DNA of 34,105 bases, from assembly GCA_017466305.1 (NCBI GenBank), contig JAFTUJ010000520.1, positions 1 to 34,105 on the forward strand. The letters are read 5' to 3'. Below the pieces are notes generated by a model. That model made no database searches, was not told the DNA's origin, and saw only the letters and a program-made list of their open reading frames with translations. A program made the translations under genes and the position numbers. Each line of letters begins with the position of its first letter. The stretch's first letter is position 1. The stretch is from Thermoguttaceae bacterium (lineage in GTDB: Bacteria > Planctomycetota > Planctomycetia > Pirellulales > Thermoguttaceae). Shown here piece after piece: positions 16,874 to 24,344 of this stretch.

Positions 16874-17405
16874 TTCGTTCACCGTTCTTTCTACGTTCCT
16901 AAAATAAGGGGAAGCCGGGAAGCGGAACGACGCCGTTTCCTCGTTCGCGTCCGCAAAGCGGGCCGAGTAAAACGCAAAGACGGTCGAACGAACGCGCCGC
17001 CCGTCGCGACCGCTTCGCCCTACCGTCCTCAAAATCGTTCGACGCGCCGACGCTTGACGACGCGCTCCCCAAAAAGCTAATTCACATCTTGCCTAAATTG
17101 ACGTCTCGAATATCTCGTTTCCTTTATTATAAGGCCTCCGACGCCAAAAAGCAACACGTTTTAAAAATTTCTCAAAATTTTCTTCGCAAAAAATTTTTTT
17201 CTCCGCGAAACGCTCCTTCGATTCGCCGCCCGTCGCCGGAGCGTTCCCCCCTTCCTTTTTCCCTCTTCGCTCGAATCGCCCGCGTCGCGTCGCCCCTCAA
17301 AATAAAGGAAAAAAGACGCTTTTTTACGCGCTCCCCTCGCGCAACTTAGCCAAACCTAACTTTTTTAACTTTCAACGTTTACCGTTTTGCCGCCCGTTAA
17401 ACTAG

Positions 17406-17423
17406 GCGCTTTGCGCAAAGCGC
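17406..17423. promoter_or_regulatory. An 18-bp perfect palindrome GCGCTTTGCGCAAAGCGC (candidate operator)
   Basis: It is a perfect inverted repeat about 65-80 bp upstream of the predicted PFOR -35 element. It lies in the 640-bp divergent intergenic region. Confidence 0.4.
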
Positions 17424-17487
17424 GCGGCTTGCGTCGGTTCCGCGTTCGCTCAAACGACGGAAATAAAAAAGTAACGCCGCCCCCCGC

Positions 17488-17516
17488 TTGCCAAAAGCCG
17501 AAACTGGAGGTAGAAT
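17488..17516 (+). promoter_or_regulatory. Sigma-70-like promoter for PFOR (TTGCCA-17-TAGAAT)
   Basis: TTGCCA lies at 17488-17493 and TAGAAT at 17511-17516, separated by a 17-nt spacer. This implies a leader of about 150 nt before the AGGAG RBS and the ATG at 17674. Promoter rules in this lineage are poorly known. Confidence 0.4.
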
Positions 17517-17673
17517 GAGGGCAAAAAATATAGGACGGGTACGCCCGCCCCGCGCGGCGTCGAATCGCGACGTTTTTGGACGACTTTTGCCTCTCGGCGA
17601 AACGACGCGACGCGCTTCCTTGCGACGCCCTACATTGAGGCGCCCCGAACGAATATTTTACTAGGAGACTTAA

Positions 17674-21204
<3,531 letters not shown>

Positions 21205-22691: not shown

Positions 22692-22855
22692 TTTCGCCGT
22701 CTTAACGTTTGCCGCCTCGACGCGCCGCCGCGAACGCCCTAAAAATGGGAATCGCGACCGTCGAGGTTTACATTCATCATACCGCAATTTTCGATTTTTT
22801 GAAGCCCGAAAACCCGAAATTTCCCGAAACGCCGGCTCGCGAAACCGACGTAAAA

Positions 22856-22889
22856 AAGCGCGCCCCCGCCGACCGACGCGAACGCGCTT
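22856..22889 (-). terminator. Weak hairpin plus T-run downstream of the three-gene cassette
   Basis: A 7-bp stem AAGCGCG/CGCGCTT closes a 20-nt loop. On the minus strand it is followed by TTTTTTA. Confidence 0.35.
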
Positions 22890-22933
22890 CTTATTCCATC
22901 GCTTAACCGTTGTTATCTAATGCCTTACATCAA

Positions 22934-23224
22934 TCATTCAAGACCGTAAACAGCCTCCGCAGGCAAAGCGGCCAAGACCTCGCGAAACGTCATACCGACC
23001 TCGGTCATTGTGTCGTTAAGGAAATCCTCAAAGGAATTCCAACCGTACTCGTGTTCCGTGTCGGGATCACCCCATTCATATTTCTCCGTCATCCTCCAAA
23101 CATACCCGAAATGCGAACCGGAATATTGAAAGAGATAGCCTCCATATTTAACATTGGCCTCCGCCAACCATCCGCCGTTTGCTTCATATTTTGCTAAAAG
23201 AGCGTCCAAAGCCGTTTTTTTCAT
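22934..23224 (-). CDS. Small acidic Trp/Tyr-rich protein of 96 aa; candidate immunity/antitoxin component
   Basis: The ATG at 23222-23224 overlaps the stop of the upstream ORF (ATGA). The protein is MKKTALDALLAKYEANGGWLAEANVKYGGYLFQYSGSHFGYVWRMTEKYEWGDPDTEHEYGWNSFEDFLND.... I recognise no family. The gene is CpG-poor compared with its neighbours. Confidence 0.55.
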   Translation of the reverse strand: MKKTALDALLAKYEANGGWLAEANVKYGGYLFQYSGSHFGYVWRMTEKYEWGDPDTEHEYGWNSFEDFLNDTMTEVGMTFREVLAALPAEAVYGLE

Positions 23225-23604
23225 CGTCGTTTCTCCTGAATTTTCTCGATAACTTTCCCCCAACGCGCCCATTCCGCCGACGTAAGCGCCCGCGAAACGT
23301 TACTTCGCTCGCCGTTCTGGTACTCGTGAACGTGAAAATCGTCCTTCGACATGCCGTGATGATGAGAATGTCCAAAATCAATATCCAGCGCAGGAAAACG
23401 CCTCTCGAAAACGCGCAATTGCTTAGGTTGACCATTTTGATCGCATGCAACATACGCGGCGGCGGTGTTGGCGCGCTCCGGCAAATTATTACTTGCCGAA
23501 TTCTTTTTTCCTAAAACCTTCACGCCTTCGATTTTTCCGATCTCTTGATATTTAAGCGGTTCGCTAAACCCGCCTTGCGGTAAAAACGCGCCTCTACTCC
23601 CCAT
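23221..23604 (-). CDS. 127-aa protein with a His cluster (GHSHHHG...HVHEY); candidate metal-dependent nuclease-type toxin
   Basis: The ATG at 23602-23604 overlaps the DUF4417-like stop by 11 nt. The protein is MGSRGAFLPQGGFSEPLKYQEIGKIEGVKVLGKK...QLRVFERRFPALDIDFGHSHHHGMSKDDFHVHEYQNG.... The longer 185-aa track ORF is an upstream extension lying inside the DUF4417-like gene. Confidence 0.55.
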   Translation of the reverse strand: MGSRGAFLPQGGFSEPLKYQEIGKIEGVKVLGKKNSASNNLPERANTAAAYVACDQNGQPKQLRVFERRFPALDIDFGHSHHHGMSKDDFHVHEYQNGERSNVSRALTSAEWARWGKVIEKIQEKRR

Positions 23605-24202
23605 CGCGGCCCCCTTTCTTCGCTTTTTTTGCCTTGCGACGTTCGTCGGCCCAACGGTAATGAGTGTTCGCATACTGAACGACCCGCGCCGAGCCGAAGT
23701 CGCATTCCTTCGGTCGCGAACCGTAAAGAAGAACCGTCGACGGCGCCAAACGTTCCATCGCCGCGTCGAAACCTTCAAGAAAAACCTTGTGCGACAAAGA
23801 GTTGCGCATTACGCCGACCGTCGAAATCGAGACGACCGAACCGGTCGGCAAACCGTCGAAGCAGTAGTCGAACGACGCGCGCTCCGCCCATTGCAACGTC
23901 GGAACGACCGTCGCCCCCGCCGCTTGCAGAAGCGCTCCAATCTGTCGCGAACGCCAAACATTGTTTATCTTCGGCGGATACGGCATATCGAGATAGAGCG
24001 AAAAATCGGGCGTCAACACGCAGGCGAACCGCGCCAACCGCTCGACGTAACGCTCGAAACGGAGCCAGATTTTATCGTCGAAACGATAATCGTCGAGATA
24101 AAAATGAACGCCGCGTTCGTAAGTCTCGCTTTTAACGGCCTTTTCGAAGTCGGTCAACTCCGACGGCGGCGAAAAATCCTCGACCGGCGCCAACGCGGGC
24201 AT
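23594..24202 (-). CDS. DUF4417-like protein (function unknown)
   Basis: The 202-aa ORF contains HFYLDDYRFD..W..ERYVERLARFACVLTPDFSLYLDMPYPPKINNVWRSRQIGALLQAAGATVVPTLQW. From memory this matches the DUF4417 (PF14386) pattern of phage and mobile-element proteins. It has a Lys-rich C-terminal tail. Confidence 0.65.
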   Translation of the reverse strand: MPALAPVEDFSPPSELTDFEKAVKSETYERGVHFYLDDYRFDDKIWLRFERYVERLARFACVLTPDFSLYLDMPYPPKINNVWRSRQIGALLQAAGATVVPTLQWAERASFDYCFDGLPTGSVVSISTVGVMRNSLSHKVFLEGFDAAMERLAPSTVLLYGSRPKECDFGSARVVQYANTHYRWADERRKAKKAKKGGRDGE

Positions 24203-24316: not shown

Positions 24317-24344
24317 ATTATACGCTTAACACTCGATATTTCAA
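24317..24344 (-). promoter_or_regulatory. Sigma-70-like promoter for the cassette (TTGAAA-16-TATAAT on the minus strand)
   Basis: The minus strand reads gctaTTGAAAtatcgagtgttaagcgTATAATaaaag. The -35 element is at 24339-24344 and the -10 at 24317-24322. They lie in an AT-rich tract about 115 nt upstream of the ATG at 24202. Confidence 0.45.

Follow-up and report, generated by a model that had tools for sequence, protein, structure and literature searches.

What function might a DUF4417 gene serve when overlapping stop and start codons lock it to two small genes that resemble a toxin and its antidote? The question is raised by a 34,105-nt stretch of DNA, hereafter the window, from a Thermoguttaceae bacterium (Planctomycetota; contig JAFTUJ010000520.1 of assembly GCA_017466305.1). 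Its minus strand carries a cassette of three stacked open reading frames (ORFs): gene 1 (24202..23594), encoding a 202-aa DUF4417 protein; gene 2 (23604..23221, with its ATG at 23604), encoding a 127-aa putative toxin; and gene 3 (23224..22934), encoding a 96-aa putative immunity protein or antitoxin. The first-pass annotation had proposed that the three genes form an isolated and undescribed conflict system, and its account of the ORFs and their overlaps, which amount to 11 nt between genes 1 and 2 and to an ATGA at the junction of genes 2 and 3, was borne out in full. We consider it probable, although by no means assured, that the cassette is a chromosomal, immunized, split member of a DUF4417-anchored polymorphic-toxin-like family.

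Judged by its sequence, gene 1 is unambiguously a bona fide DUF4417 protein, as had been anticipated. It matches the Pfam profile PF14386 with E = 6.9e-52 and 176 bits (gathering cut-off 28.9), residues 1-177 aligning to profile positions 9-182 of 183, and it retains all residues that are invariant in a 27-sequence alignment of the family (D38, D66, S68, Q93, G96, W105, F115, D116, G117, G144 and P154). In PHROGs it matches phrog_8680 and the C-terminal half of phrog_940, and it contains no ParB domain. DUF4417 is present in 493 phage records in our analysis, including gp1 of mycobacteriophage D29 and Streptococcus phage A25.

A search anchored on DUF4417 yielded 80 genome loci and 80 viral loci from IMG/VR (loci of the comparison are designated below by L numbers). 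An ORF initiated by MG[GSA]RG begins at or just past the DUF4417 stop codon in 57 of 78 genome loci and in 69 of 80 viral loci, the viral counts being inflated by the many loci that come from one metagenome (3300045988); elsewhere in the two sets, each of about 0.7 Mb, there are eight such ORFs in the genome set and eight in the viral set. The consensus of this N-terminal tag is MGGRGASSG, and gene 2 of the window opens with a variant of it, MGSRG (23590..23604, minus strand). The 184 tagged ORFs beside DUF4417 fall into 47 unrelated sequence clusters, the largest of which, with 68 proteins, is the family of gene 2. Tagged clusters match the Pfam families ADPrib_exo_Tox (2e-15), Ntox50 (8e-15), Gln_amidase (2e-11) and PBECR3 (6e-9), as well as PBECR2, CdiA_C and DUF6883. 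The association was also tested in reverse, with a nucleotide pattern encoding MGGRGASSG that recovered 120 viral stretches; among the 100 with enough upstream sequence, DUF4417 ends at most 2.5 kb upstream on the same strand in 97. This near-exclusive, two-way linkage with a nine-residue N-terminal tag argues that DUF4417 recognizes or processes the tag.

In some genomes the connection between DUF4417 and toxin-like domains is covalent. Seven genome loci encode a longer protein that begins with DUF4417 (residues 1-205) and continues in frame through a GGGSASG linker into a further domain. The fusions in L093 and L094 end in a Ribonuclease/barnase domain (PF00545; E = 1e-9, above the cut-off), that in L092 gives a sub-threshold match to Ntox37, that in L083 carries an Ntox24-like domain, and one further class carries an unknown domain; small immunity-like ORFs come after each of the fusion genes. 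At the level of the family, a constant N-terminal module is combined with variable toxin domains, as in polymorphic toxins, the equivalent parts in the window being separate genes, and DUF4417 acts like the part that stays constant in a family of polymorphic effectors.

Several of these loci have peculiarities of their own. The ORFs that follow the DUF4417-barnase fusions encode proteins of 134-136 aa (L093:5924-6789, a tandem duplicate, and L094:5970-6374); considered as Barstar homologues, they had no Pfam match, and they may represent a new family of barnase inhibitors. Genes for a HipA_C-like kinase and a MazE/AbrB-like protein lie directly 5' of two fusions (L079:3930-4742 and L092:3328-4742), and both loci look like toxin-antitoxin or defence islands. 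Furthermore, some DUF4417-adjacent proteins contain a motif, H-N-H-P-x-G...S-x-x-D, that resembles JAB/RadC-type metallopeptidases; its carriers are an 11-member tagged cluster represented by L044 and gp32 of Streptococcus phage IPP54 (L101:5551-6297), in which GGGRG is internal, after about 60 residues.

Genes 2 and 3, for their part, show the evolutionary signatures of a toxin-immunity pair, namely joint fast divergence, matched alleles, tandem pairs, an orphan copy and fusions. At orthologous Thermoguttaceae loci, identities are 87-99% for the flanking genes, 84-97% for DUF4417, 65-89% for gene 2 and 56-94% for gene 3. The identities of genes 2 and 3 co-vary (r = 0.92, from five loci that provide ten non-independent pairs), so that the two genes vary as a pair behind a conserved DUF4417 gene, a check that had been proposed beforehand. 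The alleles of both genes are of two types, A and B, which are always matched, the window being of type B. One metagenome-assembled genome (MAG) has the gene order DUF4417-2A-3A-2B-3B (L184), L007 contains an orphan 3A, and two database proteins, P0249 and P0062, are fusions of genes 2 and 3. In every gene 2-anchored context examined, the gene 3 homologue overlaps the gene 2 stop codon. The immunity arrangement of polymorphic toxins is accordingly represented, with gene 3 overlapping gene 2, the two pairs of L184, the orphan gene 3 of L007 and the tandem ORFs of L093.

The product of gene 3 is small, acidic (pI 4.5, charge -9) and rich in aromatic residues (17.7%), much as the first reading had described it; in charge it is thus the opposite of the basic gene 2 product, as suits an immunity protein. 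Its AlphaFold2 (AF2) model has a mean predicted local distance difference test score (pLDDT) of 94.6 and an α+β architecture, and homologues from other phyla share a C-terminal motif, G-K-[ST]-F-x-E. No DNA-binding domain is detectable in the protein. Assignment to the SUKH-1/SMI1_KNR4 family (PF09346) was tried and rejected: the match reaches 14.1 bits (E = 0.073) against a cut-off of 25.4 bits, it is found in none of ten other gene 3 homologues, and the model finds no SUKH structure.

The recurrence of the whole triad, in Thermoguttaceae contigs and in other phyla, indicates that the cassette genes are real rather than chance ORFs and confirms the conserved synteny on which the original proposal depended. 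All seven distinct gene 2-anchored contexts contain DUF4417, as an adjacent gene. The closest public relatives come from Thermoguttaceae MAGs of the ruminant gut, with 96% identity in DUF4417, and the Thermoguttaceae triads share one locus, next to Metallophos and AzlC genes; those of other phyla occupy unrelated genomic contexts. On Clostridia-like contigs the triad is found at differing sites, after genes for an XRE repressor and a Peptidase_M78 (ImmA/IrrE) protein; this pair lies directly upstream in all Clostridial triads and is absent from the window copy. In L017 the order is permuted (XRE-M78-gene 2-gene 3-DUF4417) with the linkage kept. In three independent contigs, L013-L015 (e.g. L013:6376-6999), DUF4417 is broken into two ORFs of 51 aa and 109 aa, whereas gene 2, gene 3, XRE and M78 remain whole. 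The constant module thus seems to be decaying in cassettes that have kept the toxin-immunity pair, and the disruption of DUF4417 beside intact genes 2 and 3 suggests that DUF4417 is dispensable for immunity. TnpV and DUF6809 genes adjoin the cassettes of L013-L015.

These observations bear directly on a different arrangement of roles, in which the cassette would be a three-component type II toxin-antitoxin system; DUF4417 would then serve as antitoxin, regulator or chaperone, and gene 3 would play an accessory part. No gene is linked to gene 2 more constantly than DUF4417. Genes 2 and 3 form a small overlapping pair, with gene 3 in the downstream position and separate XRE/ImmA regulators in the Clostridial versions only. 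However, a role as a specific antitoxin is incompatible with the N-terminal fusion of DUF4417 to unrelated toxin domains and with its pairing with 47 unrelated effector clusters. Moreover, it is gene 3, not DUF4417, that co-varies with gene 2 and is fused to it in the two database proteins, and genes 2 and 3 persist in L013-L015 where DUF4417 is disrupted. We therefore hold a type II system to be highly improbable.

What kind of toxin, then, might gene 2 encode? The protein is basic (pI 9.5) and belongs to a large family: profile searching found 298 representatives, and 1349 clusters at 90% identity, nearly all of them unannotated standalone proteins of 120-145 aa. In an alignment of 106 sequences, P42 and H91 are the only invariant residues, and M1, G2, K29, Y51 and H93 are near-invariant, Y51 and H93 being conserved in at least 90% of the sequences; D74 and D76 are conserved among close relatives only. 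The AF2 model (pLDDT 90.6) is a meander of seven β-strands followed by one C-terminal helix. Both the sequence family and the model point to Ntox24 (PF15529), a domain described as all-β, with a conserved Y, H and H, and predicted to be a metal-independent endoRNase (Zhang et al., 2012; PMC3482391). Three of the 106 family members match Ntox24 at E <= 0.01 (best E = 9.6e-7), and the family consensus aligns to profile positions 3-77 of 91 with E = 7e-5 and 23.5 bits, just under the gathering cut-off of 24 bits; consensus sequences of sub-clusters score E = 0.0075 and 0.066. With an all-β fold and Y51, H91 and H93 in the place of the published Y, H and H, the assignment of gene 2 as Ntox24-like at the superfamily level is supported.

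The first-pass annotation had taken another route, finding the dense His cluster of gene 2 (DIDFGHSHHHGMSKDDFHVHEY, with the pattern HSHHH...HVH) reminiscent of xHH-type toxin nucleases of the HNH/EndoVII fold; on that reading gene 2 would be a DNase toxin whose cluster binds metal. Apart from the cluster itself, the data run the other way. Neither the window protein nor any of its 106 homologues has a Pfam match to HNH or to the Tox-HHH, AHH, SHH, GHH or LHH families, the modelled β-meander with its C-terminal helix is not a ββα-Me fold, and the HSHHH run is lineage-specific, being variable or absent in homologues. Since the fold is all-β and H91 and H93 are the only conserved His residues, the HNH/xHH assignment was rejected on the evidence of sequence and predicted fold, and the chance that it is correct is in our estimate close to negligible.

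The other hint given with that assignment, a similarity to modules attached to phage MuF proteins, proved a good lead. Ntox24 domains are reported on MuF toxins, as well as on toxins of type II, type V and type VII secretion systems and in novel toxin-antitoxin-like pairs (Zhang et al., 2012; PMC3482391). In BFVD, the model of gene 2 has matches among phage proteins, one of them to the C-terminal part of a 'minor capsid protein' of 406 aa. The MuF domain itself has no match in the cassette proteins. Tracing gene 2 in phages depends on sensitive profiles: in tblastn searches of phages, the window gene 2 had no match and a Firmicute homologue retrieved a single unannotated record, the phage copies being detectable only by hidden Markov models.

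The phage versions differ in composition from the cassette. DUF4417 of phages is usually fused to ParB_N, a combination confirmed in Streptococcus phage Javan174, and in Javan174 and A25 the DUF4417/gene 2-like module lies immediately 5' of the terminase genes. Gene 3 was found in none of the 80 viral loci, and neither was an M78 gene. The lack of an immunity gene and the site just upstream of the terminase genes suggest that the phage module is probably an infection-time effector system. The term 'isolated' can accordingly be upheld for the cassette within the window only, the module as such belonging to a very large phage-linked family.

Some details of the phage loci deserve mention. For A25_23 (L306:2385-2768) and Javan174_0036 (L100:5905-6174), the public start is annotated too late, and an upstream in-frame ATG restores MGGRGASSG. 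Two or three consecutive, mutually unrelated MGGRG-tagged genes follow one ParB-DUF4417 gene in several prophage loci (L024:5552-6700, L037, L032, L034 and L039), forming effector arrays. Mycobacteriophages of cluster A open with the DUF4417 gene, which is their gene 1 and lies at the end of the genome, but the neighbouring gene lacks the tag; in D29 (L102:392-2097), for instance, gp1 at the left genome end is the DUF4417 protein and gp2 does not carry MGGRG. Actinophage members of the DUF4417 family may work differently.

The phage context also invites an explanation without any toxin, namely that DUF4417 and gene 2 are a phage-derived accessory module with a task in DNA packaging or modification or in the virion. 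In that case gene 2 would be a β-protein that has a structural purpose or binds nucleic acids, gene 3 would be its partner in assembly, and the copies found in chromosomes would be remnants. The position of the pair directly before the terminase in Streptococcus phages, including A25 and Javan174, and that of DUF4417 at the genome end of cluster A mycobacteriophages would suit such a task, as would the absence of an immunity gene from the phage copies and of a characterized structural neighbour for gene 2. Yet the partners to which DUF4417 is fused are barnase, Ntox37-like and Ntox24-like domains, and its tagged neighbours include classical toxins (ADP-ribosyltransferase, Ntox50, PBECR and deamidase). 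Furthermore, the occurrence of the triads at one conserved locus across divergent Thermoguttaceae, together with the way in which genes 2 and 3 have diversified in matched alleles and been duplicated, does not resemble the decay of remnants. Such a non-toxic role appears to us quite unlikely.

A defence function is a further alternative, and one that overlaps the polymorphic-toxin-like interpretation rather than excluding it. Here the cassette would be a domesticated phage module acting in abortive infection, with DUF4417 as a sensor or decoy for phages that carry ParB-DUF4417 and tagged effectors; upon infection, either the toxin encoded by gene 2 would be released from its gene 3 partner or, in the Clostridial versions, cleavage within the XRE/ImmA pair would de-repress the operon. 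Consistent with this scenario, the XRE and Peptidase_M78 (ImmA/IrrE) genes stand directly upstream of every Clostridial triad, the cassettes are small low-GC islets amid housekeeping genes, phages carry the homologous module, and HipA-like, MazE-like and UvrD/nSTAND-like genes occur among the neighbours. Against it, none of the three proteins has a match in PADLOC (PADLOC-DB 2.0) at E <= 1, and the window copy lacks XRE/ImmA and has a constitutive-looking promoter. Abortive infection as the function of the cassette is thus unlikely in our judgement.

The cassette of the window has the features of a self-contained transcription unit. The sigma-70-like promoter noted at first reading, TTGAAA-16 nt-TATAAT (24344..24317, minus strand), was recovered by a promoter scan with 11 of 12 positions matching; it lies about 115 nt 5' of the gene 1 start, its function is predicted, and the cassette region contains five promoter-like matches against 1.1 expected. 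Downstream, an intrinsic-terminator-like hairpin with a U-run (22892..22853, minus strand) has a GC-rich stem of 13+4 bp and lies about 40 nt past the gene 3 stop codon. A simple terminator scan did not pick it up; RNA folding did, the 91-nt minus-strand stretch 22845-22935 having a folding energy (dG) of -35.7 kcal/mol (z = -4.98), with none of 200 shuffles as stable, which upholds the earlier description of a hairpin followed by a T-run. Our view of the cassette as one self-contained operon of three translationally coupled genes is supported.

The junction of genes 1 and 2 could also be read as a site of programmed frameshifting or transcriptional slippage that joins the two products. The 3' end of gene 1 contains a run of seven A (23624-23630, minus strand) 20 nt before the gene 2 ATG, the gene 2 frame stays open for 58 codons 5' of that ATG, and 40 loci share the 11-nt overlap; slippage with loss of one A would yield a DUF4417-gene 2 fusion like the natural fusions in L079-L095. 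However, gene 1/gene 2 junctions have their own Shine-Dalgarno-like GGAGG 8-12 nt 5' of each ATG, and the recurrent overlap is explained by the codons ATG GGN GGT AGA. On both counts, ordinary translational coupling is the simpler explanation.

The GC content of the cassette (0.49-0.52) is lower than that of its flanks (0.57-0.61). Among the flanking genes are those for AzlC/AzlD, a Metallophos phosphoesterase, a β-lactamase/esterase and a rhamnosidase. In line with the first-pass annotation, which had noted none nearby, the window contains no phage structural gene and, according to a tRNA scan, no tRNA gene; a secretion system is likewise absent from it, and the leader and spacers of the cassette have no Rfam match at E <= 1. 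At many loci of the window, long mirror ORFs lie opposite real genes, as expected for GC-rich DNA. For instance, the minus-strand ORF of 1277 aa at 17365-21198 has no Pfam match and faces 17674-21204 on the plus strand, where the real gene of the relatives encodes a pyruvate:ferredoxin oxidoreductase.

How does the cassette relate to known systems? With Ntox24 it shares an all-β domain with Tyr/His/His that stands alone beside a small gene, and a profile similarity that lies at the Pfam threshold. It differs in that the window gene 2 is below every Pfam threshold and has an MG(G/S)RG tag and a C-terminal helix, in that the partner is neither Imm50 nor Imm53, and in the obligatory link to DUF4417, which does not appear in the main text or in one supplementary file of the Ntox24 study (PMC3482391). 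MuF toxins (Jamet et al., 2017; PMC5576092) and PBECR polyvalent proteins (Iyer et al., 2017; PMC5512222) likewise combine a constant phage-associated module with swappable toxins and, sometimes, immunity genes, and their effector repertoire overlaps strongly with that of the DUF4417 family (ADP-ribosyltransferase, Ntox50, PBECR and nucleases). In the DUF4417 family, however, the constant module is DUF4417, often with ParB_N and located upstream of the terminase, whereas that of MuF comes after the portal gene, and the effectors are mostly separate genes with a short N-terminal tag rather than C-terminal fusions. The cassette resembles barnase-barstar and the colicin and contact-dependent inhibition pairs in that the gene for a small and basic putative toxin, nuclease-like in character, precedes a co-transcribed gene whose product would be its inhibitor, likewise small but acidic and specific to the allele; fusions of DUF4417 to barnase itself exist. 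By search, however, neither gene 2 nor gene 3 is related in fold to barnase or barstar, and the cassette has no export or receptor-binding domain.

The accessible part of a 2025 preprint, the only substantive treatment of DUF4417 that we found in the searchable literature, describes ParB-DUF4417 as a frequent, prophage-enriched fusion with no assigned function that is possibly involved in anti-defence (bioRxiv 10.1101/2025.10.10.680097); in that part no link of DUF4417 to toxins or to a tag is drawn, and gene 1 of the window differs from the fusions in having no ParB. Neither the DUF4417 anchor nor the MGGRG tag nor the gene 3 family was found in the searchable literature or in PADLOC. The initial designation of the system as undescribed must thus be qualified: toxin-immunity pairs and Ntox24 are already known, standalone Ntox24 toxin-antitoxin-like pairs having been noted in 2012, but the rule that ties DUF4417 to the tag is apparently undescribed.

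In the mechanism that we propose for the polymorphic-toxin-like cassette, one promoter would give rise to a single mRNA on which the three ORFs are translationally coupled. The toxin, small, basic and all-β, would be the product of gene 2 and belong to the Ntox24-like superfamily; by analogy with Ntox24 it is predicted to act as a metal-independent endoRNase using Tyr51, His91 and His93, and its MG(G/S)RG tag would be the mark borne by almost all effectors encoded beside DUF4417. The acidic product of gene 3 would serve as the cognate immunity protein or antitoxin that binds and neutralizes its own gene 2 allele. DUF4417 would be the invariant partner that recognizes, activates or loads the tagged effector and that is covalently joined to the toxin in some genomes. 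The phage form, placed shortly before the terminase genes, combines ParB_N-DUF4417 with between one and three tagged effectors and has no immunity gene; the bacterial form adds gene 3, in Clostridia also the XRE/ImmA pair, and may persist as a self-stabilizing addiction or defence islet. Toxicity, the RNase chemistry, neutralization by gene 3 and the role of DUF4417 are the parts of this scheme that we infer.

More tentatively, and with considerable doubt on our part, the scheme can be extended. As the module that recognizes or processes effectors in a phage system not recognized before, DUF4417 might bind GGRGASSG, exposed after removal of the initiator Met, or act on it as an enzyme, and thereby activate, ligate or load swappable toxins. 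In the phage form fused to ParB_N, the effectors might travel with the packaged DNA when it enters another host; the Thermoguttaceae cassette would then be an immunized derivative retained by the host.

Several observations weigh against the polymorphic-toxin-like interpretation. Gene 2 itself has no Pfam match at E <= 1, and the consensus of its family falls short of the Ntox24 gathering cut-off, Ntox24 itself appearing to be only a predicted RNase. PHROGs, PADLOC and NCBIfam return nothing for gene 2 or gene 3, and sequence searches of the PDB with either, as single proteins or as profiles, find nothing significant. The gene 2 model has no significant structural neighbour in the PDB, and that of gene 3 no match there with E below 0.1, so that neither protein is anchored to a characterized one; DUF4417, too, has no relatives in the PDB by single-protein or profile search. 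The inflated viral counts and the non-independence of the pairs behind the correlation of genes 2 and 3 also detract, and phage copies of gene 2 without a detectable immunity gene are compatible with a non-toxic role as well. Finally, the window contains no secretion or delivery apparatus, and the label 'polymorphic toxin' accordingly denotes an evolutionary behaviour, not a delivery route.

A toxin-immunity pair alone would be ordinary, and the interest of the cassette comes mainly from the general rule that connects DUF4417 and the tag. Through this rule DUF4417, a domain that numerous gut bacteria share with the model phages D29 and A25, gains a functional context that can be tested, and the MGGRGASSG tag predicts effector or toxin genes whatever their fold, so that searches for it could bring new toxins and immunity proteins to light. 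If DUF4417 does load or process tagged proteins, it would offer a tool for cargo targeting. The family as a whole hints at another polymorphic effector system linked to phages, a counterpart of MuF; should DUF4417 prove to handle the tag, this would give the domain a function and phages a second polymorphic-effector route.

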